A stretch of DNA of 64,000 nt, from positions 21,712 through 85,711 of the forward strand of contig CATZRD010000006.1 in assembly GCA_958423465.1 (NCBI GenBank), in the 5' to 3' direction. Under the pieces are notes generated by a model. That model saw only the letters and a program-made list of their open reading frames with translations, did not search any database and was not told where the DNA came from. The stretch's first letter is position 1; each line of letters opens with the position of its first letter. Shown here piece by piece: positions 1,986 to 18,593 of this stretch. Origin of the DNA: an uncultured Oscillospiraceae bacterium (GTDB lineage Bacteria > Bacillota > Clostridia > Oscillospirales > Oscillospiraceae). A program made the position numbers and the translations under genes.

Positions 1986-3155
1986 ATGGCAAAGATCGCG
2001 ATCATGGGCTTCGGCACCGTGGGCGGCGGCGTGGCGGAGGTGCTGCGCCGCAACGGTGAGGAGATTCGCGCCCGCCTGGGCGAGAGCGTGGAGCTGAAGT
2101 ATATCCTGGACGTCCGGGATCTCTCCGCCACGCCCTACGCGGACAAGGCGGTGAAGGACTTCTCCGTGCTGGAGAACGACCCGGAGCTGGACCTGGTGGT
2201 GGAGTCCATCGGGGGCGCCAGGGTGGCGCTGGAGTTCACCCGCCGGGCGCTTATGGCGGGCAAGCATGTGGTTACCTCCAACAAGGAGCTGGTGGCCTCC
2301 CACGGCCGGGAGCTGCTGGACATCGCCCGGGAGAAAAACGTCAACTACCTCTTTGAGGCCAGCGTAGGCGGCGGCATCCCGGTGCTGCGGCCCCTGACCT
2401 GGTGCCTGGCGGGCAACCAGATCCAGGAGATCGCGGGGATCCTCAACGGTACCACCAACTATATCCTGACCCGGATGGTCAAGGGGGGCGTCTCCTTTGA
2501 CGCGGCGCTGAAGGAGGCGCAGGCCAGGGGCTACGCCGAGGCCGACCCCACCGCCGACGTGGAGGGCCTGGACGCGGGGCGGAAGATCTGCATCCTCTCC
2601 GACCTGGCCTGGGGCCGGGAGGTGCGCCCGGAGGCCATCTCCGTGCGGGGGATCTCCGGCGTGGACCTGAAGGACGTGGCCATCGCCAGCGGCGCGGGCT
2701 ACCGGGTGAAGCTGCTGGGCCGGGCCATGCGCCTGGCCGGCGGGCGGCAGGCCGCCTTCGTCTCTCCCCATCTGGTGCCGGAGAGCTGCCCTCTGGCGGG
2801 GGTGGACGACGTATTCAACGCCATCATGATCCGGGGCAACGCCGTGGGCGACGTGATGTTCTACGGACGGGGAGCGGGGGACCTTCCCACCGCCTCCGCC
2901 GTGGTGGGGGACGTGGTGGACGCCCTGCTCCACCGGCACAGCCGCCGGGCCATCGGCTGGGGCGAGGCGGCGGAGCTGGCGGACTTCGAGACGGAGCTGC
3001 CCCTCTACTGGTATCTCCGGGGCGGTTTTACCGCGCCGCCCAGCAGCGAGACCCTGTCCGACGGGGCTGTTATCGTGGGACCGGTGCCCTTCCGGGAGGC
3101 CCGGGCTCTGGCCGCCCGGGTAGGGGCCCAGGCCCTGCTGCCCGTTCTGCGCTGA
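1986..3155 (+). CDS. hom: homoserine dehydrogenase
   Basis: N-terminal Rossmann MGFGTVGGG, conserved Hom core and C-terminal ACT region; AAAGGAG RBS. Confidence 0.9.
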   Translation: MAKIAIMGFGTVGGGVAEVLRRNGEEIRARLGESVELKYILDVRDLSATPYADKAVKDFSVLENDPELDLVVESIGGARVALEFTRRALMAGKHVVTSNKELVASHGRELLDIAREKNVNYLFEASVGGGIPVLRPLTWCLAGNQIQEIAGILNGTTNYILTRMVKGGVSFDAALKEAQARGYAEADPTADVEGLDAGRKICILSDLAWGREVRPEAISVRGISGVDLKDVAIASGAGYRVKLLGRAMRLAGGRQAAFVSPHLVPESCPLAGVDDVFNAIMIRGNAVGDVMFYGRGAGDLPTASAVVGDVVDALLHRHSRRAIGWGEAAELADFETELPLYWYLRGGFTAPPSSETLSDGAVIVGPVPFREARALAARVGAQALLPVLR

Positions 3156-3243
3156 CCGGGGCGGCGAAGGACCGTGACGCGGCGGCCCGGCCCTGGGTAT
3201 ACTGGGGTGCGGCCACTCCATTCCATAGAAGGGAAGTTGAGAT

Positions 3244-4461
3244 ATGAGTCTGATCGTACAGAAATTTGGCGGCAGCTCCGTCCGGGACGCGGAACGCATC
3301 CGCAACGTGGCGGGCATCATTGCCGATACGTACCGGGCGGGGAACCAGGTGCTGGTGGTCCTCTCCGCCCAGGGAGACACCACCGACGACCTTATCGACA
3401 AGGCGAAGGAGATCAACCCCCGGGCCTCCCGGCGGGAAATGGATATGCTCCTCTCCGCCGGGGAGCAGATCTCCGTGGCCCTGTGCGCCATGGCCCTGGA
3501 GGCCATGGGCCTGCCGGTGGTGAGCCTGCTGGCCTGGCAGGCGGGGATCCAGACCACCAGCGTACACAGCGACGCACGGATCAAGCGCATCGACAAGGAG
3601 CGGATCCAGCAGGAGCTGGATAAGAACAAGATCGTTCTGGTGGCGGGCTTTCAGGGCATCAGCCGCTTCGGCGACGTGACCACCCTGGGCCGGGGCGGCT
3701 CCGACACCAGCGCCGTGGCGCTGGCGGCGGCCTTCAACGCGGAGCTGTGCCAGATCTATACGGATGTGGACGGCGTGTATACCACGGACCCCCGCATCGC
3801 CCCCAACGCCAAAAAGCTCCCGGAGATCACCTACGACGAGATGCTGGAGCTTGCCAGCCAGGGCGCCCAGGTGCTCCACAACCGCAGCGTGGAGCTGGCG
3901 AAAAAGTACCATGTGAACATGGAAGTCGTGTCCAGCCTGGAGCGAAAGCCCGGCACGAAAGTCAAGGAGGTTGTCAAGATGATGGAAAAGACCAATATCG
4001 CCGGCGTGGCGAAGGATACCAGTATCGCCCGGATCGCCCTGGTGGGCCTGGCCAACAACCCCGGCGTGGCCTTCCGGGTGTTCTCCCTGCTGGGAAAGGC
4101 CCGGGTGAACATCGACACCATCATCCAGTCCATTGGCCGCCAGGAGAGCAAGGACATCAGCTTCACCCTGCCCCAGTCCTCGGTGGAGACGGCCTGCCGG
4201 GTGCTGGAGGAGCAGAAGCAGTCCCTGGGCTTCGACCACATCACCGTGGACGACAAGATCGCCAAGGTCTCCATCGTGGGGGCAGGGATGATGACCACTC
4301 CCGGCGTGGCGGCCAAGATGTTCGAGGCCCTCTATGACGCCAATATCAACATCCAGATGATCAATACCAGCGAGATCCGGGTCTCGGTACTCATCGACGA
4401 GAGCGACGCCGCGGCCGCCGTCCGGGCGGTCCACGACAAGTTCTTCGGCGAGGGCGAGTAA
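3244..4461 (+). CDS. lysC: aspartate kinase
   Basis: KFGGSS nucleotide-binding N-terminus, C-terminal tandem ACT domains. Confidence 0.9.
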   Translation: MSLIVQKFGGSSVRDAERIRNVAGIIADTYRAGNQVLVVLSAQGDTTDDLIDKAKEINPRASRREMDMLLSAGEQISVALCAMALEAMGLPVVSLLAWQAGIQTTSVHSDARIKRIDKERIQQELDKNKIVLVAGFQGISRFGDVTTLGRGGSDTSAVALAAAFNAELCQIYTDVDGVYTTDPRIAPNAKKLPEITYDEMLELASQGAQVLHNRSVELAKKYHVNMEVVSSLERKPGTKVKEVVKMMEKTNIAGVAKDTSIARIALVGLANNPGVAFRVFSLLGKARVNIDTIIQSIGRQESKDISFTLPQSSVETACRVLEEQKQSLGFDHITVDDKIAKVSIVGAGMMTTPGVAAKMFEALYDANINIQMINTSEIRVSVLIDESDAAAAVRAVHDKFFGEGE

Positions 4462-4481
4462 GGGAAAACGGACCATCCTCA

Positions 4482-4512
4482 GGCGGGAGCGCTCACTGCG
4501 CTCCCGCCTTTT
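4482..4512 (+). terminator. Rho-independent terminator after lysC
   Basis: 11-bp GC stem GGCGGGAGCGC/GCGCTCCCGCC, 5-nt loop, followed by TTTT. Confidence 0.8.
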
Positions 4513-4578
4513 GCTGTCACGGCGGAGGCTCCCGGCTCATAAACTGGACCAGATCAAAGGACGGAGGAGGCGATAGCG

Positions 4579-4725
4579 ATGCGCGGATGGTGCCGCTGGC
4601 TGGGGACGCTGGCCCTGGCTCTGGGCGCGGGGATCCTGATCGCCGCCATCTTTCCTGTGGGGGCGCTGCTGTTTCTGGTGGCGTTTCTGCTGATCGCCTG
4701 CGGTTTAATGTGTATGCGCCGGTAG
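4579..4725 (+). CDS. small hydrophobic (two predicted TM) protein, 48 aa
   Basis: ATG 7 nt after GGAGGAGG RBS; MRGWCRWLGTLALALGAGILIAAIFPVGALLFLVAFLLIACGLMCMRR; below track size cut-off. Confidence 0.45.
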   Translation: MRGWCRWLGTLALALGAGILIAAIFPVGALLFLVAFLLIACGLMCMRR

Positions 4726-4738
4726 AGAGGAGGTTGCC

Positions 4739-4813
4739 ATGAAAATCGTGGTGGTGAAGTCGCCGAAGTTCCTGGGCGGAATCCTGAAGCGGCTTTTTGG
4801 GATCAAGGAATAA
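4739..4813 (+). CDS. spoVM: stage V sporulation protein M (SpoVM-like amphipathic peptide, 24 aa)
   Basis: MKIVVVKSPKFLGGILKRLFGIKE aligns with B. subtilis SpoVM MKFYTIKLPKFLGGIVRAMLGSFRKD (K-x-PKFLGGI core); GAGGAGG RBS; adjacent to SpoIVA/SipL genes. Confidence 0.7.
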   Translation: MKIVVVKSPKFLGGILKRLFGIKE

Positions 4814-4897
4814 CCCCCGGCGGCCTCTCATACAGTGGGGGTAACGGAGCTTGACTCATGTATCCGCCCCACAGGGGCAAAAGGGAGGACGCCAAGG

Positions 4898-6424
4898 ATG
4901 GAATGTAAGCTGACAAGATCGGGCCACGACTATTACGAGCCCCTGCGCTGGCCCAGCTTTTCCTGTGAGACCATGCGGGAGAGCATCGTGCCGGACAGCT
5001 GCCCGGATATCGCCCGGATCATCGATACGGTGGGCGCCGTCTACCTGACGGGCCGGGAGCTGACCGGCGACGGCCGGTGCAGCGCCAGCGGCAGCGTGGA
5101 TGTGGCGGTGCTGTACATACCGGAGAAGGGGGAGGGGCCCCGGGTCCTCCGCTTCCAGCTTCCGTTTCAGTGCTATGGGGACAGCCTGGGGACCGGGGAG
5201 TGCGACTTTCTGGATATCCGGGGGGAGCTGCGGGGAATCGATACCCGCGCCCTGAACCCCAGAAAGGTGCTGACCCGGGCCAACATCGACCTGTATCCCT
5301 CCGGCTGCCGCCGGGTCCGTCTGGAGCTGTGCGACGGCGCGGAGGAGGAGCAGGAGGATCTTCAGCTGCTGCGGGAGGAGCGTACCTGCCGGGTGGTGGC
5401 CGCCGTCCGGGAGCGGGAATTCACCTTCGTGGAGGAGCTGCCGGTGTCCGCCGGCCGGGCCGGCGGGGAGGAGGCGGTGCAGCTCCGCTGCGACGTGCGC
5501 TCCAACGACGTGAAGCTCATCGGCAGCAAGCTGGTGGTGAAGGGGCTGATCTCCGCCAGCCTGCTCTACCGGGAGGAGGGGGGCCGCCTGGCCCTTTTGC
5601 AGCAGGATCTGCCCTTCTCCCAGATTCTGGACGGCGCGGGGCTGGAGGAGGACTGGGACAGCGAGGCCGCGTTCCGCCTGCTCAGCGCCGAGTGCCGCCT
5701 GGGCAGCGAGAGCGCCCCGGACGACGCCCATGTGTTCACCGTGACGCTGCTGCTGCGGACCCGGGTGACCGTCTGCCGCCAGGAGCGGATGGGCTATATC
5801 GCGGACCTCTACAGCACCGCCGGAGAGATCGACTGTCAGACGGAGACCCTGCGCCTGACGGAGGACGCCCAGCGGGTGGTCCGCCGCCAGAACGTCCGGG
5901 AGCTGCTGGAGACGGGGGTGGGGGTCAAGTCGGTGGTGGACGCCTCCGTGGTCTGCGGCGCCGCCCAGGTGGGCGGCAGCGCCCTGGAGATCCCGGTGAG
6001 CGCCCGGTGCCTGTATCTGGACGAGAACGACGCCCTGCGCTCCGTGACCCGGGAGTTCACCGCCTCCTGTCCGGCGGAGCTGCCGGAGGGCTTTCAGGCG
6101 GAGGGCGAGGCGGTATGCCGGGGGGAGATGATGACCAGCGTTCTGCCGGAGGGGATCGAGCTGCGCTTCCCCCTGGAGTGTACCCTGGAGCTCTGCCGCC
6201 GGACGGAGCGGCTGTGCGTCAGCGCCGGGGAGCGGCGGGAGCGGCCGGAGGACCAGGAGCCGCAGCCCTCCCTGATCCTGCGGAAGTTTTCCGGGGACGA
6301 GACGCTGTGGGCGGTAGCGAAGCAGTACCGCACCACCGCCCAGGCGATCTTGTCGGTGAACGGGGCCGAGAGCGAGGCCCAGCTGCCCAGAGACCGGCTG
6401 CTGCTGGTCCCGCGGGCCCGGTAA
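4898..6424 (+). CDS. sipL: SipL/SpoVID-like sporulation protein (DUF3794-type N-region plus C-terminal LysM)
   Basis: C-terminal LysM motif (FSGDETLWAVAKQY...SVNG); immediately upstream of spoIVA; ATG 4898 after GGGAGG RBS (track start 4835 is an extension). Confidence 0.65.
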   Translation: MECKLTRSGHDYYEPLRWPSFSCETMRESIVPDSCPDIARIIDTVGAVYLTGRELTGDGRCSASGSVDVAVLYIPEKGEGPRVLRFQLPFQCYGDSLGTGECDFLDIRGELRGIDTRALNPRKVLTRANIDLYPSGCRRVRLELCDGAEEEQEDLQLLREERTCRVVAAVREREFTFVEELPVSAGRAGGEEAVQLRCDVRSNDVKLIGSKLVVKGLISASLLYREEGGRLALLQQDLPFSQILDGAGLEEDWDSEAAFRLLSAECRLGSESAPDDAHVFTVTLLLRTRVTVCRQERMGYIADLYSTAGEIDCQTETLRLTEDAQRVVRRQNVRELLETGVGVKSVVDASVVCGAAQVGGSALEIPVSARCLYLDENDALRSVTREFTASCPAELPEGFQAEGEAVCRGEMMTSVLPEGIELRFPLECTLELCRRTERLCVSAGERRERPEDQEPQPSLILRKFSGDETLWAVAKQYRTTAQAILSVNGAESEAQLPRDRLLLVPRAR

Positions 6425-6494
6425 CGGGGCGGCCGCCTGGAGGCGGACAAAAATTTGAGCGGAAGCAAAGCGCCGGAGGGCGCAGGAGGGTACT

Positions 6495-7973
6495 ATGACG
6501 ACCACAGACATCTATCAGGATATCGCCACCCGCACCGGCGGCTCCCTGTTCGTGGGAGTGCTGGGTCCGGTGCGCACCGGAAAGTCCACCTTTATCAAGC
6601 GGTTCATGGAGACCTGCGTGATCCCCAATATCGAGAACGTCTACCGGCGGGAGCGGGCCATCGACGAGCTGCCTCAGTCCGGCAGCGGACGGACCATCAT
6701 GACGGCGGAGCCGAAGTTCGTGCCGGAGGAGGCGGTGACCGTCACCCTGGAGGGGGGCGTCACCTTCGCCGTGCGGCTCATCGACTCCGTGGGCTACATG
6801 GTCCGGGGGGCCATGGGCCAGACCGAGGACGGCGCGCCCCGAATGGTCATGACCCCCTGGTCGGATCAGGAGCTGCCCATGGCCCAGGCGGCGGAGATCG
6901 GCACCCGGAAGGTCATCTGCGAGCACTCCACCGTGGGCATCGTCATCACCACCGACGGCACCGTCACCGACATCCCCCGGGAGGACTATCTGGAGCCGGA
7001 GGAGCGGGTGATCCGGGAGCTGCAGGAGCTGGGCAAGCCCTTCGTGGTTCTGCTGAACTCCGCCCAGCCCCACGCCCAGCGTGCCCTGTCCATCGCCCGG
7101 GACATCGAGAGCAAATTCTCCGTCCGCTGCCTGCCGGTGAACTGTCTGGAGCTGGGGGAGGAGGCCATCTTCGATATCATCAAGAGCATCCTCTATGAGT
7201 TCCCCCTGCGGGAGCTGCGGATGTTCCTGCCCGCCTGGGTGGACGCCCTGCCCATGGACCACCCCATCAGGCAGTCGGTCTACGGGGCCATCCGGGACCG
7301 GGGGGAGACCCTGGCCCACATCCGGGAGGTGGAGCCGGTGATCCAGGCCATGGGGGAGGAGGAGAACATCTCCCTGGCCCGGGTGACGGCCATCGATCTG
7401 GGCCGGGGCGTGGCCTCGGCGGAGGTGCAGCTCCCCAGAGAGCTGTTCTACCAGACCCTCAGCACCCAGTCCGGCTTCCAGGTGTCCGACGACGGAGACC
7501 TGATGGACCTGCTGACAGCCCTGGCCAAGGTGAAATCCAGCTACGACAAGGTAGCCTCCGCCCTGGACAACGTCTACGAGACGGGCTACGGCATCGTCAT
7601 GCCCACCATGGATGAGCTGAAGCTGGAGGAGCCGGAGGTCATGCGCCAGGGCGGGCGCTACGGCATCCGCCTGAAGGCCAGCGCCCCCTCCGTCCACATG
7701 TTCAAGGTGGACATTGAGTCCACCGTCAGCCCCATTGTGGGCAACGAGAAGCAGAGCGAGGACATGGTCAACTACCTGATGGAGAAGTTCGCCTCGGACC
7801 CGGCCAAGATCTGGGAGTCCAATATCTTCGGCCGCAGCTTCCACGAGCTGGTGAACGAGGACCTGCAGGCAAAGCTGTACCGGATGCCCATGGACGCAAG
7901 GCTGAAGTTCCAGGAGACCCTCCAGCGCATCGTCAACGAGGGCAGCGGCGGCCTCATCTGCATCATTCTGTGA
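6495..7973 (+). CDS. spoIVA: stage IV sporulation protein A (coat morphogenetic ATPase)
   Basis: N-terminal Walker A GPVRTGKSTF and full-length SpoIVA-like sequence. Confidence 0.9.
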   Translation: MTTTDIYQDIATRTGGSLFVGVLGPVRTGKSTFIKRFMETCVIPNIENVYRRERAIDELPQSGSGRTIMTAEPKFVPEEAVTVTLEGGVTFAVRLIDSVGYMVRGAMGQTEDGAPRMVMTPWSDQELPMAQAAEIGTRKVICEHSTVGIVITTDGTVTDIPREDYLEPEERVIRELQELGKPFVVLLNSAQPHAQRALSIARDIESKFSVRCLPVNCLELGEEAIFDIIKSILYEFPLRELRMFLPAWVDALPMDHPIRQSVYGAIRDRGETLAHIREVEPVIQAMGEEENISLARVTAIDLGRGVASAEVQLPRELFYQTLSTQSGFQVSDDGDLMDLLTALAKVKSSYDKVASALDNVYETGYGIVMPTMDELKLEEPEVMRQGGRYGIRLKASAPSVHMFKVDIESTVSPIVGNEKQSEDMVNYLMEKFASDPAKIWESNIFGRSFHELVNEDLQAKLYRMPMDARLKFQETLQRIVNEGSGGLICIIL

Positions 7974-7985
7974 CTGAGATTGCCC

Positions 7986-8020
7986 AGGAGGGGCGTCCGC
8001 TGCCGGCGGACGCCCCTCCT
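7986..8020 (+). terminator. GC-rich hairpin after spoIVA (no clear U tract)
   Basis: 15-bp stem AGGAGGGGCGTCCGC/GCGGACGCCCCTCCT with 4-nt loop. Confidence 0.45.
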
Positions 8021-8146
8021 GCAATGTCCCGCGGAGCAGTTGCCTCTTGCTATTTTGCAAAAACTATAGTACAATACCCCTGTGGAATCCTGTTGGATAG
8101 TCACAAAATATACAGAATACGCGGTGAAGAAACCGAAAGGAGCAAG

Positions 8147-9424
8147 ATGGAGATGGAATATACCCGCATGACCCCCGCCCAGCTGGCTGCGGAGAAGGAG
8201 ATCGTCTCCCGCCGGTTCGAGGAGCTGAAGGCCAGGGGCCTGAAGCTGGATATGTCCCGGGGCAAGCCCGGCAAGGTCCAGCTGGATCTGGTCAGCGACA
8301 TCCTGACGGTGCTCAACGATCCCGCCCAGTGCCAGGTGGAGGGCCTGGATGTGCGCAACTACGGCGAGCTGACCGGTCTGCCCGCCGCCAAGCGGCTCTT
8401 TGCCGAGATCCTGGGCTGCAGGCCGGAGGAGTGCTTCATTGGCGGCAACGCCAGCCTGACGCTGATGTACGACACCATTGCCAAGGCCTATACCCACGGC
8501 CTTCTCCACAGCGAGAAGCCCTGGGCCAGGCTGGACAAGGTGAAGTTCCTCTGTCCCGCCCCGGGCTATGACCGGCACTTCAAGATCAGCCAGTCCTTCG
8601 GTATGGAGCTGATCACCATTGAGATGACCTCCACCGGCCCGGACATGGACGCCGTGGAGGCCTATGTGAAGGACCCCGCCGTGAAGGGCATCTGGTGCGT
8701 GCCTAAGTATTCCAACCCGGAGGGCGTCATCTACAGCGAGGAGACCATCCGCCGCATCGCCCATCTGAAGCCCGCCGCGCCGGACTTCATTGTCATGTGG
8801 GACAACGCCTACTGCATCCACGAGTTCGACGGCGACTATGTGCCCTTCCCGGACATCCTCAGCCTCTGCCGGGAGGCGGGAAATCCGGATCTGGTGTTCG
8901 AGTACGCCTCCACCTCCAAGGTGACGCTGCCCGGCGCGGGCGTCTCCGTCATGGCTGCCAGCGTGGACAATATCAAGTATATGGTGGGACTGCTGGGCAT
9001 CCAGACCATCAGCTACGACAAGGTGAACCAGCTGCGCCATGTGCTGTACTTAAAGGACAAGGCCCACACCCTGGAACTGATGAAGCGCCACGCCGCCATC
9101 ATGAAGCCCAAGTTCGACGCGGTGGTGAAGGCTCTGGACCAGCAGATCGCCCCCCTGGGCATCGCCCAGTTCAAGCGGCCCAAGGGCGGCTATTTCGTCA
9201 GCGTGGACACCATGGACGGTCTGGCCAAGCGCACCCTGGCCCTGTGTAAGGAGGCCGGCGTGGTGATGACCGCCGCCGGGGCCACCTTCCCCTACGGGGT
9301 GGACCCCCGGGACCGGAACATCCGAATCGCCCCCAGTCTGCCCCCGGTGGAGGAGCTGGAGGTGGCTATCGACGTGTTCTGCACCTGCCTGAAGCTGGCG
9401 GCCCTGGAGAAGCTGACAGCCTAA
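8147..9424 (+). CDS. PLP-dependent aminotransferase (class I/II fold)
   Basis: ~425 aa aminotransferase-like sequence; GAAAGGAG RBS; upstream TTGCTA-17-TACAAT promoter. Confidence 0.7.
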   Translation: MEMEYTRMTPAQLAAEKEIVSRRFEELKARGLKLDMSRGKPGKVQLDLVSDILTVLNDPAQCQVEGLDVRNYGELTGLPAAKRLFAEILGCRPEECFIGGNASLTLMYDTIAKAYTHGLLHSEKPWARLDKVKFLCPAPGYDRHFKISQSFGMELITIEMTSTGPDMDAVEAYVKDPAVKGIWCVPKYSNPEGVIYSEETIRRIAHLKPAAPDFIVMWDNAYCIHEFDGDYVPFPDILSLCREAGNPDLVFEYASTSKVTLPGAGVSVMAASVDNIKYMVGLLGIQTISYDKVNQLRHVLYLKDKAHTLELMKRHAAIMKPKFDAVVKALDQQIAPLGIAQFKRPKGGYFVSVDTMDGLAKRTLALCKEAGVVMTAAGATFPYGVDPRDRNIRIAPSLPPVEELEVAIDVFCTCLKLAALEKLTA

Positions 9425-16721: not shown

Positions 16722-17082
16722 GCGCAGACGCCGTGGGAACGAGGGGGAGGCCGCCGCGGCGGAGTGGCTGCGGGCGCGGGGCTACCGAATCGCGGAGCGG
16801 CAGTTTCGCTGCCGGTTCGGGGAGATCGATCTCGTCGCCTGGAGCCCGGAGGGGGTCTTGTGCTTCGTGGAGGTCAAGACCCGCCGGAGCGCCGCCTTCG
16901 CGGCCCCCAGAGAGGCGGTGACGGCCGCCAAGCGGCGGCGGCTGCGGGCCGCCGCGTCCTGGTATCTGGCCCAGCGGGAGCTGGACTGCCCCTGCCGCTT
17001 CGACGTGGCGGAGGTCTACGCCGCCGCAGACGGCTCCCGGCAGAGGCCGGCGATCCACTACATCATCAGCGCGTTCCAGTGA
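16714..17082 (+). CDS. yraN: YraN family protein (UPF0102 predicted endonuclease)
   Basis: UPF0102 length and GEIDLV core; 8-nt overlap with rnhB. Confidence 0.75.
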   Translation: MDERRRRGNEGEAAAAEWLRARGYRIAERQFRCRFGEIDLVAWSPEGVLCFVEVKTRRSAAFAAPREAVTAAKRRRLRAAASWYLAQRELDCPCRFDVAEVYAAADGSRQRPAIHYIISAFQ

Positions 17083-17105
17083 GCGCGACCCTGGAGGATA
17101 CAGCT

Positions 17106-18593
17106 ATGGAATATTTGAGCACGAGAGACAAAACCCTGCGCCTCACCGCTGCCCAGGCCATCAAGATGGGCCTCAGCCGGGACGGCGGCCTCTTTACCCC
17201 CGTACAGCTCCCCACCATGGGGGCGCTGGAGGTGGAGGCCCTGCGGGGCATGGACTATCAGGGCCGGGCGGCCTATGTGATGGGGATGTTCCTGACGGAG
17301 TTCACCTCCGAGGAGCTGGAGACCTTCGCCCGCCGGGCCTATGGCCGGGAGAAGTTCGACTGCGACGGCGTGGCCCCCCTGCGCCGGGTGGACGAAACGA
17401 CCTGGTGCCTGGAGCTGTGGCACGGCCCCACCAGCGCCTTTAAGGACATGGCTCTGCAAATGCTGCCCCAGCTTCTGTCCGCCAGTCTGGAAAAGACCGG
17501 GGAGGACAAGACAGCCTGCATCCTGGTGGCCACCTCCGGCGACACCGGCAAGGCGGCCATGGAGGGGTTTGCCGACGTGCGCCAGACCAAGATCCTGGTG
17601 TTCTACCCGGAGAACGGGGTCAGCCAGATCCAGAAGCTCCAGATGGTCACCCAGGAGGGGGCCAACGTGGGGGTCTGCGCCGTCCGGGGCAACTTCGACG
17701 ACGCCCAGAACGGCGTCAAGCGCATCTTCTCCGACCCGGCCATTCGGGAGGAGCTGGCGGGCCGGGGATACTTCCTGTCCTCCGCCAACTCCATCAACTT
17801 CGGGCGCATCCTGCCCCAGGTGGTCTACTATATCTCCGCCTACTGCGACCTGCTGAACGCCGGGGCGGTCCGGCTGGGGGACCGGGTGAACTTCTGCGTG
17901 CCCACCGGCAACTTCGGCAACATCCTGGCGGCCTACTACGCGGAGAAGATGGGCGTCCCCGTGGGGAAGCTCATCTGCGCCTCCAACCGCAACGACGTGC
18001 TGACGGACTTTATCCGCACCGGCGTCTATGACCGCAACCGTCCCTTCCACACCACCATGAGTCCCTCCATGGACATTTTGATCTCCAGCAACCTGGAGCG
18101 GCTGCTGTTCGACCTCTCCGGCGGAGACGACGAGCTGGTCCGGCGCTATATGGCGGATCTGGCGGAGACTGGCCGGTATGAGATCTCGGAGGAGATGCGG
18201 GAAAAGCTCCAGAAGCGGTTCTGGGGCGGCTTCTGCTCCGAGGAGGAGACGTCTGCAACCATCGGCCAGCTGTACCGGGAGCGGGGGTATCTCATCGACA
18301 CCCACACCGCCGTGGCGGCCAAGGTGCTGGCCGATTACCGGCGGGAGACCGGCGACGGCGCTCCCGCGGTGTTCGCCTCCACCGCCAGCCCCTACAAGTT
18401 CTGCGATAGCGTGCTCACCGCCATCGGGGAGGTTCCGGTGGCAGACAGCGTGGACCGCATCGCCCAGCTGGAGGCTGTCACCGGCGTGGCCGCCCCGAAG
18501 CGGCTGGCGGCCCTGAAGGGGAAAGCCCGCCGGTTCGGCGGCGTCGCGGACAGGGAGCGGATGGAGGACGTGGTCCTGGACTTTCTGCGGTAA
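17106..18593 (+). CDS. thrC: threonine synthase
   Basis: PLP-binding TSAFKDMA lysine motif; long-form ThrC length. Confidence 0.85.
   Translation: MEYLSTRDKTLRLTAAQAIKMGLSRDGGLFTPVQLPTMGALEVEALRGMDYQGRAAYVMGMFLTEFTSEELETFARRAYGREKFDCDGVAPLRRVDETTWCLELWHGPTSAFKDMALQMLPQLLSASLEKTGEDKTACILVATSGDTGKAAMEGFADVRQTKILVFYPENGVSQIQKLQMVTQEGANVGVCAVRGNFDDAQNGVKRIFSDPAIREELAGRGYFLSSANSINFGRILPQVVYYISAYCDLLNAGAVRLGDRVNFCVPTGNFGNILAAYYAEKMGVPVGKLICASNRNDVLTDFIRTGVYDRNRPFHTTMSPSMDILISSNLERLLFDLSGGDDELVRRYMADLAETGRYEISEEMREKLQKRFWGGFCSEEETSATIGQLYRERGYLIDTHTAVAAKVLADYRRETGDGAPAVFASTASPYKFCDSVLTAIGEVPVADSVDRIAQLEAVTGVAAPKRLAALKGKARRFGGVADRERMEDVVLDFLR

Follow-up and report, generated by a model that had tools for sequence, protein, structure and literature searches.

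A spoVM-sipL-spoIVA spore-coat gene cluster of a gut Oscillospiraceae bacterium and the CD25622-like gene that precedes it

Described coat-anchoring systems and the locus of the window

The closest described relatives of the locus treated here are the SpoVM-SpoIVA-SpoVID system of Bacillus subtilis and, in Clostridioides difficile, the SipL-SpoIVA pair (Touchette et al. 2019, PMC6436350) and the CD25622-spoVM gene pair (Ribis et al. 2017, PMC5607322). Our locus lies at positions 4579-7973 of what we call the window, the whole 64,000-nucleotide (nt) stretch of contig CATZRD010000006.1 (positions 21,712 to 85,711; assembly GCA_958423465.1) from an uncultured Oscillospiraceae bacterium, and it comprises spoVM, a sipL-like gene and spoIVA, preceded by a 48-codon gene that we call orf48. 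In B. subtilis the corresponding genes are presumably dispersed, with spoVM between thiN and rpmB and with spoIVA and spoVID elsewhere, and we know of no orf48-like gene upstream of spoVM in that species. C. difficile transcribes CD25622 and, downstream of it, spoVM together under sigma E, and CD25622 was described as a protein of 50 amino acids (aa) that is unique to Peptostreptococcaceae (PMC5607322). The C. difficile pair sits beside rpmB, with sipL (CD3567) elsewhere on the chromosome, whereas the pair in the window is joined to sipL-spoIVA and has no rpmB nearby. An earlier note on this DNA had given the C. difficile order as spoIVA-sipL with spoVM elsewhere, which found no support here, for sipL CD3567 and the CD25622-spoVM-rpmB locus are separate there; if spoIVA is CD2629, as we take it to be, all three genes are dispersed in C. 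difficile. The open reading frames (ORFs) of our locus and their ribosome-binding sites (RBSs) are as follows.

4579..4725, + strand: orf48, 48 aa, two transmembrane (TM) helices; RBS GGAGGAGG at 4563-4570
4739..4813, + strand: spoVM, 24 aa, MKIVVVKSPKFLGGILKRLFGIKE; RBS GGAGG at 4729-4733
4898..6424, + strand: sipL-like gene, 508 aa; start ATG 4898; RBS GGGAGGA at 4883-4889
6495..7973, + strand: spoIVA, 492-aa coat basement-layer ATPase

All four lie on the plus strand, flanked by genes for aspartate kinase and aspartate aminotransferase, and all have a strong Shine-Dalgarno sequence; they stand where the earlier note had placed a contiguous spoVM - sipL-like - spoIVA locus. Positions 4579-7973 are a genuine compact spoVM, sipL, spoIVA spore-coat gene set of a gut Oscillospiraceae bacterium.

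The 24-codon ORF scored 40.7 bits on the NCBIfam model NF033436 (SpoVM_broad; curated cutoff 31, E 1.7e-10) over residues 1-23 of 24. No other of the window's 1182 small ORFs was SpoVM-like by a SpoVM profile built here, on which the 24-codon ORF scored 56.7 bits and the runner-up ORF 7.5, although this profile includes the window's own SpoVM sequence. Of the residues K2, I6, P9 and I15 that are considered functionally important for SpoVM (Fig. 1 legend, PMC5607322), this peptide of under 30 aa keeps K2, P9 and I15, and position 6 is Val and not Ile, a conservative change. With B. subtilis SpoVM it shares K2, P9, the PKFLGGI core and I15. On the strength of these matches the ORF is SpoVM, as the earlier note had proposed from the peptide and its strong RBS; the same note had called the gene unannotatable, and here it was mistaken, as the peptide passes the curated NCBI model.

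The further remark of that note, that such tiny genes are routinely missed, was borne out by database records: the exact SpoVM peptide is recorded on 2 contigs only (both from JGI), the exact orf48 protein on 238 and the sipL product on 150. spoVM is systematically under-called in metagenome annotation, and that it is seldom recognised was reported already by Galperin 2012 (PMC3533761). On NF033436 (cutoff 31), SpoVM of C. difficile scored 27.8 bits (L083:9246-9326, in our numbering of fetched loci), that of Caldicellulosiruptor 26.0 and that of a Pseudoflavonifractor-type locus 29.3. Since the C. difficile protein, which has been studied experimentally, falls below the cutoff, the curated model would miss genuine SpoVMs.

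The sipL-like gene encodes a protein with PF12673 (SPOCS/DUF3794, the SPOCS domain being reportedly defined by Delerue et al. in 2022) at 50.5 bits (cutoff 23.6) in two stretches and with a C-terminal LysM domain at 22.1 bits (cutoff 20.9; residues 467-494). All of its 310 homologues carry PF12673 and are annotated as DUF3794 proteins of Oscillospiraceae. We took ATG 4898 as the start because homologues cover the 508-aa protein 100%; the DUF3794/LysM SipL-like identity given in the earlier note is upheld by the profile check that it had suggested, and its length of 509 aa is not. The LysM region reads ...GDETLWAVAKQY... and contains the motif GDETLW, whose aromatic Trp after 'TL' was placed at Trp475 of C. 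difficile SipL by motif from the published description and not by alignment; Trp475 lies in the LysM domain and is involved in SpoIVA binding (PMC6436350). The likeness to C. difficile SipL further extends to the order of SPOCS/DUF3794 and C-terminal LysM and to a length of about 500 aa, and the difference is that the genes of the window are adjacent, probably in one operon. No NCBIfam family, SpoVID models included, matched the 508-aa protein at E<=1, and we therefore file it as SipL-type and not as SpoVID, in which it differs from the encasement partner of the B. subtilis system. Its architecture identifies it as a SPOCS plus LysM SipL-type protein that, by analogy, would bind SpoIVA and serve coat encasement.

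Next after this gene, as the earlier note had it, comes spoIVA, whose product scored 677.6 bits on TIGR02836 (cutoff 459.9; aligned 1-492 of 492) and matched PF09547, PF20438 and PF20439 end to end, with the Walker A motif GPVRTGKST. These matches unambiguously mark 6495-7973 as coding for full-length SpoIVA. A SpoIVA ATPase together with a SPOCS plus LysM encasement partner is likewise what the window shares with B. subtilis. By these assignments the gut Oscillospiraceae lineage of the window, an abundant one, has the SpoVM-SipL-SpoIVA coat-anchoring set in full, and as sporulation biology the cluster is unremarkable.

Gene order across Oscillospiraceae

We fetched 80 Oscillospiraceae loci via SpoIVA as anchor and scanned them with tblastn and hidden Markov models (HMMs); 70 had enough upstream flank. 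They fall into four groups.

sipL contiguous with spoIVA: 36 loci; SpoVM before sipL in 33, orf48-family gene in 13
sipL upstream, with an insertion of 0.6-3.9 kb before spoIVA: 14 loci; SpoVM before sipL in 14, orf48-family gene in 12
no sipL within at least 4 kb upstream of spoIVA: 20 loci
too little upstream flank: 10 loci

Thus sipL lies upstream of spoIVA in 50 of the 70 loci, and spoVM directly before sipL in 47 of these 50. The synteny comparison across Oscillospiraceae that the earlier note had called for finds the small ORF conserved before sipL in 47 loci, and neither of the grounds it had named for dropping the claim, lack of a profile hit and lack of conservation at this position, was encountered. 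The spoVM-sipL-spoIVA order is a family-wide trait (Oscillibacter, Dysosmobacter, Flavonifractor, Pseudoflavonifractor, Lawsonibacter) and not peculiar to the window. We found no paper describing a spoVM-sipL-spoIVA cluster, and an earlier account of sipL-spoIVA linkage may be contained in Delerue et al. 2022.

Insertions of 0.6-3.9 kb of other genes between sipL and spoIVA were seen in L006-L010, L012-L014, L019, L023, L033, L040, L047 and L057, and where the upstream sequence was read, spoIVA in such loci usually has its own sigma-E-like promoter, GTCATA-N-CATAGAGT. Among the loci with SpoIVA close to that of the window, L019 (identity 84%) carries a 3.9-kb insertion, and L003 and L005 (identity 81-86%) have an upstream flank too short to judge sipL.

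In many loci rsgA, a GTPase gene of the cpgA/yloQ type, lies directly upstream of spoVM or of orf48-spoVM; it is found about 100-400 nt upstream of spoVM in L006-L014, L021, L024, L029, L032, L045, L049, L051, L056, L058, L060, L066 and L071, and also upstream in L087, L088, L090 and L092-L094. The neighbourhood in B. subtilis, which we assume to be prkC-rsgA-rpe-thiN-spoVM-rpmB, is the same in kind, and L087 and L088 have the full order prkC-rsgA(cpgA)-rpe-thiN-orf48 homologue-spoVM-rpmB. Because of this likeness, spoVM seems to keep its ancestral site, with sipL-spoIVA joined to it later in Oscillospiraceae. Distant relatives retain rpmB or rsgA next to spoVM. The window instead has homoserine dehydrogenase and aspartate kinase genes upstream, and none of the 20 other Pfam-matched genes across 322-31305 encodes L28 or RsgA. 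Compared with the ancestral order, the unit of the window is one that has moved or had its flank rearranged, and the missing rpmB neighbour is a contextual and not a defining feature of spoVM.

orf48 and the CD25622 family

The product of orf48 starts with MRGWCRW and continues with TM1, the turn FPVG, TM2 and a C-terminal CMRR; both termini are basic. AlphaFold models it as a helical hairpin (helices 4-24 and 29-47, turn F-P-V-G; predicted local distance difference test score 73), and hydropathy is uniformly high over residues 8 to 45. The gene lies 13 nt before spoVM on the same strand. Among 23 orf48 homologues, substitutions at codon positions 1/2/3 numbered 3634/2257/6201, a difference between positions that argues for purifying selection and marks orf48 as a genuine coding gene. 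The earlier note was right in reporting a 48-aa ORF with two TM segments, and both helices are predicted; its description of the ORF as extra does not stand, as orf48 is one of a conserved family to which C. difficile CD25622 also belongs.

An alignment-based search with orf48 returned 949 clusters at E<=1; among 120 listed matches the names shown were all 'hypothetical protein' save one JGI 'fucose permease', and none had a Pfam domain. On the orf48 family, Pfam and NCBIfam gave sub-threshold matches only (best DUF6249, E 0.008; SepX/GlpR, E 0.04). We also considered orf48 as a lipoprotein on account of a lipobox-like L38-x-x-C41 (LIAC, LIGC) and rejected this, as many members have V, F, L or I at position -1 and several divergent ones lack the Cys.

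The CD25622 locus was recovered from metagenome contigs via reverse primer 2149 of Ribis et al.; their forward primer 2148 found no match in JGI metagenomes and viral contigs, the recovered locus differing from it at a few bases. This locus, L083, holds CD25622 (MRNNKSKVLLGILCLATGMAVILSMLLPGWIWSALTALILIGCGALLFFC, 50 aa), then SpoVM (MKVVTIKLPKWISSIILKFMRKSKND), then rpmB on the opposite strand. Its CD25622 was identified by the site of primer 2149, the TargeTron target near nt 38, the length of 50 aa and the spoVM and rpmB neighbours, and the ORF agrees at 98-100% with database proteins of C. difficile. An hhalign comparison of 13 Oscillospiraceae orf48 sequences with four Clostridioides sequences gave 96.1% probability (E 3.1e-9) over 43 columns, and the orf48 HMM scored 34.5 bits on CD25622 against at most 11.9 in 2000 shuffles and 5.5 on the reversed sequence. 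By these comparisons orf48 is homologous to CD25622. The two systems are further alike in having a gene for a two-TM protein of about 50 aa directly upstream of spoVM on the same strand, and in an identical octamer, CATAAACT, upstream of that gene.

A joint orf48/CD25622 profile was searched against 1.84 billion representative proteins and matched 142 clusters at E<=1e-3 and 68 at E<=1e-10. Members are mostly 45-60 aa long, and the longer matches owe their length to a gene call extended upstream or to a frameshift that fuses them with SpoVM. The named sources of members are Clostridioides, Paeniclostridium/[Eubacterium] tenue, Oscillospiraceae, 'Eubacteriales bacterium' and Caldicellulosiruptor morganii. 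The family, in the published account found in Peptostreptococcaceae only, is thus present here also in Oscillospiraceae, Caldicellulosiruptor and other Eubacteriales.

SpoVM adjoins the orf48-family match in all 25 Oscillospiraceae loci that have one, and in most of them the orf48 homologue lies 5-50 nt upstream of spoVM. In 13 contexts outside the 80 loci (27-66% GC), a SpoVM ORF lies 6-150 nt downstream of the family gene in 11, so that, the window left aside, the family gene is immediately upstream of spoVM in 36 of 38 contexts. Its order with other genes varies: orf48 homologue-spoVM-rpmB in C. difficile (L083), Caldicellulosiruptor morganii (L084) and L097; rsgA-thiN-orf48 homologue-spoVM in L092 and L094; orf48 homologue-spoVM-sipL-yebC in L085 and L096; and orf48 homologue-spoVM-sipL-spoIVA in L089 and L090. 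The small membrane protein cotranscribed with C. difficile spoVM is therefore no Peptostreptococcaceae oddity but belongs to a spoVM-linked family that is spread over several clostridial groups of distant relationship and ranges from 27% to 66% GC. In our literature search CD25622 was mentioned in no paper other than Ribis 2017; the occurrence of the family outside Peptostreptococcaceae and its almost invariable link with spoVM are new, in that we did not find them in the searchable literature, and the novelty is modest.

Several smaller observations concern members of this family. Proteins P0265, P0267, P0330 and P0411 are named '2-oxoglutarate translocator' in NCBI records, a function implausible for a 50-aa hairpin, and the name is probably a propagated mis-annotation; there is a case for a curated orf48/CD25622 family model and for replacing this name. 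In P0280, P0325, P0337, P0361, P0364 and P0382 the gene call joins an orf48-family N-terminus to a SpoVM C-terminus. These joined calls are probably for the most part frameshift or assembly errors; P0280 resembles in-frame read-through, and a natural fusion may be among them. In one low-GC lineage (L095:3001-5441) the orf48 homologue and spoVM are convergent with ftsH (AAA and Peptidase_M41 domains). SpoVM of B. subtilis has been reported to interact with FtsH.

Flavonifractor/Pseudoflavonifractor-type loci that have no orf48 homologue contain a different hydrophobic ORF of 52-61 aa with the motif AAGAxLLFxPGS...G.A.GYxG and a charged tail (L022:3957-4142, L025:117-275, L043:3933-4166, L046:4010-4180, L062:4142-4312). 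An overlap of 4 nt with the spoVM start is seen in L022, L043, L046 and L062, and in L025 the ORF ends 11 nt before spoVM. As a homologue of orf48 or CD25622 it was rejected (hhalign 7.6% and 0.9%) and served as negative control only; it may be an analogous replacement.

Putative transcription units, proposed working and surroundings

Three elements in and around the cluster bear on its transcription.

4516..4545, + strand: promoter-like element for orf48-spoVM, GTCAC (-35-like 'AC'), 17 nt, then the octamer shared with C. difficile (-10-like, 4538-4545)
4810..4836, + strand: sigma-E-like promoter for sipL and probably spoIVA too, ATA (4810-4812), 16 nt, CATACAGT (-10, 4829-4836)
6433..6483, + strand: two small hairpins in the sipL-spoIVA spacer (6425-6494, 70 nt), directly before the spoIVA RBS

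The -35 ATA of the sipL promoter shares bases with the spoVM stop codon. Of 45 spoVM-sipL spacers, 34 contain ATA-N16-CATA-N3-T, where 200 shuffles gave 0.28 on average and 3 at most. The B. subtilis sigma-E consensus has -35 ATA and -10 CATACA-T. Judged by this consensus, the sipL motif would be a sigma-E promoter. A -10-like (C/G)(A/T)ATA-N3-T, mostly GTATATACT, stands 20-45 nt before the orf48 homologues of the Oscillospiraceae loci and of most distant loci, and the element upstream of orf48 would likewise work as a promoter. A terminator scan called none between orf48, spoVM and sipL.

The spacer between sipL and spoIVA has no CATA-type promoter in the window, whereas relatives with a stand-alone spoIVA have their own GCATATT-N-CATAGAGT promoter; from this difference we infer that spoIVA is probably cotranscribed with sipL. 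Hairpin 1 of the spacer is CCGCC-TGGA-GGCGG (6433-6446) and hairpin 2 GCGCC-GGAG-GGCGC (6470-6483), the second (GCGC-loop-GCGC) abutting the spoIVA Shine-Dalgarno sequence. Equivalent hairpins precede spoIVA in L001-L004 and L019 (about 5920-5990), and as the stems are invariant in the clade of the window, covariation is uninformative. The hairpins could be a stabiliser in the 5' untranslated region or a translational control element.

We consider it likely, with good confidence, that the locus is a coat basement-layer morphogenesis module of two mother-cell units with orf48 as a SpoVM accessory. In the proposed scheme, the two transcription units would be able to read into each other: the first would be the orf48-spoVM bicistron, with its 13-nt gap and no terminator, and the second sipL-spoIVA, read from the sigma-E-like promoter whose -35 lies over the spoVM stop codon. 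SpoVM, a short membrane-embedding helix with an invariant Pro9 kink, would be made in the mother cell under sigma E, enter the outer forespore membrane, and there bind and tether SpoIVA, which would polymerise with ATP; SipL would then bind SpoIVA via its C-terminal LysM domain, and the coat would encase the forespore. For these roles of SpoVM, SpoIVA and SipL we rely on homology with the systems of B. subtilis and C. difficile. The orf48 product, a helical hairpin of about 50 aa with both basic termini predicted toward the mother-cell cytoplasm, would be made together with SpoVM, enter the same membrane and act as an accessory factor of SpoVM, for example in its insertion, stability or spacing. 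Expression timing, co-transcription, protein interactions and the function of orf48 are thus all predictions.

A number of observations weigh against this reading. The promoters of the cluster are motif matches only, and the -35 of the orf48 element is of an 'AC' type that cannot tell sigma E from sigma K. SpoVM gave a divided result in the profile check proposed in the earlier note, scoring above the cutoff of NF033436 but at 14.5 bits against a cutoff of 20.6 on Pfam PF08183, and the hydrophobic moment of its helix does not differ significantly from shuffles (p about 0.26), a measure that is uninformative at such length. In L001 and L004, which are among the closest relatives (SpoIVA identity 84-85%), the 6 kb upstream of spoIVA contain no sipL. 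The orf48-family gene is absent from 20 Oscillospiraceae spoVM-sipL-spoIVA loci, from which it follows that orf48 is dispensable for the cluster. In L091 (156-376) and L093 (1935-2209) an orf48 homologue is followed by sipL after a gap of 56-62 nt, with no SpoVM-like ORF in the fetched locus, so the family can be linked to sipL without spoVM. Finally, a CD25622::ermB insertion, which is polar on spoVM, gave a mild phenotype no different from that of a spoVM mutant, and Ribis et al. concluded that CD25622 is of little impact on sporulation (PMC5607322). Given this mild phenotype, any role of orf48 may be subtle.

If peptides of this family had no function, orf48 could be mainly a leader ORF that sets spoVM expression by translational coupling. 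Very short gaps to spoVM in the window and in most loci would fit this, as would the unrelated small ORF that overlaps the spoVM start in Flavonifractor-type loci, the expression of C. difficile spoVM at a level 50-100-fold lower than that of spoIVA and sipL, and the lack of an added phenotype in the polar CD25622 mutant (PMC5607322). A pure leader ORF, however, would not need Gly and Pro columns that are invariant from 27% to 66% GC genomes, purifying selection acts on the amino-acid sequence, 151 nt separate the gene from spoVM in L085, and L091 and L093 keep the gene where spoVM is missing, and we therefore regard a leader role as unlikely.

It is also rather improbable that the 508-aa protein is another SPOCS-family structural protein of coat or exosporium that merely lies beside spoIVA and is no functional SipL. 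SPOCS plus C-terminal LysM at about 500 aa is the SipL architecture, the 'TLW' Trp is retained as judged by motif, and sipL-spoIVA linkage is tight, conserved and often operonic in 36 loci, with many gaps of 10-30 nt. SPOCS/DUF3794 proteins have diversified into the structural lattice proteins CsxA, CsxC and CdeC (bioRxiv 10.64898/2026.09.03.749163), and the window's protein has no NCBIfam match, a LysM score barely above its cutoff and a likeness to C. difficile SipL by architecture and not alignment; viewed by eye in translation, with no cysteine count, it is nevertheless unlike the cysteine-rich structural class.

The likeness between orf48 and CD25622 might be compositional or convergent, both being short hydrophobic hairpins of about 50 aa dominated by L/I/V/A/G, with the position upstream of spoVM arising independently. 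Identity between the two groups is only 27-33%, and TM-segment profiles are prone to spurious matches, the top match of the large search being a repetitive protein of 2822 aa. Yet the orf48 profile score on CD25622 exceeds that of composition-matched shuffles by about 17 standard deviations and that of the reversed sequence by far, and the hhalign match runs in register over 43 of 48 columns with shared G9, G16, P26, L38 and G42 columns. A hairpin family of similar composition, located at the same place in the genome, reached only 0.9-7.6%, and members of intermediate divergence found with the joint profile are likewise upstream of spoVM, all of which makes convergence very unlikely. Although GC-rich DNA gives many spurious ORFs and a 51-codon ORF overlaps in another frame (4587-4742), it is hardly credible that the 24-codon ORF or orf48 is a chance, unexpressed ORF, given an independent curated HMM match for SpoVM at E 1.7e-10, strong RBSs and conservation of both genes in dozens of genomes, and a substitution pattern that agrees with the orf48 frame.

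Beyond the accessory role proposed above, we tentatively suggest, as a possibility that we hold with some doubt, that orf48/CD25622 is a fourth, unrecognised coat-anchoring component that partners SpoVM (or SipL/SpoIVA) in the outer forespore membrane and positions or stabilises the basement layer. If so, it would have been overlooked because of the lack of a curated family, the '2-oxoglutarate translocator' label and the supposed restriction to Peptostreptococcaceae. The family offers a concrete candidate for a SpoVM accessory factor in clostridia, where SpoVM is oddly dispensable, and the orf48-spoVM-sipL-spoIVA arrangement with its conserved sigma-E-like promoter makes a convenient genomic marker for the ability of uncultured Oscillospiraceae to sporulate.

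The immediate surroundings of the cluster contain the following features.

3244-4461: aspartate kinase gene, AA_kinase and ACT domains (Pfam)
4481..4513, + strand: intrinsic terminator of the aspartate kinase gene, 12-bp stem with 10 GC pairs, then TTTT
7990..8016, + strand: GC-rich hairpin, 10-bp stem, no U-tract, 17 nt 3' of the spoIVA stop
8047-8075: sigma-70-like promoter of the gene after spoIVA (motif scan)
8147-9424: aspartate aminotransferase gene, downstream neighbour of the cluster

The terminator at 4481-4513 would shield the sporulation cluster from upstream transcription. The hairpin at 7990-8016 was not called by the terminator scan and perhaps marks a non-canonical transcript end. 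The window, of 64% GC, gave no match to an Rfam RNA family. The surroundings are ordinary core chromosome, with hom-ask upstream and lepB, thrC, tig-clpP-clpX-lon and pyrH-frr-uppS-cdsA-dxr-rseP downstream. The cluster is set among aspartate-family genes (1986-4461, 8147-9424, 16764-18593) for homoserine dehydrogenase, aspartate kinase, aspartate aminotransferase and threonine synthase, and the aspartate pathway supplies dipicolinate and diaminopimelate synthesis.

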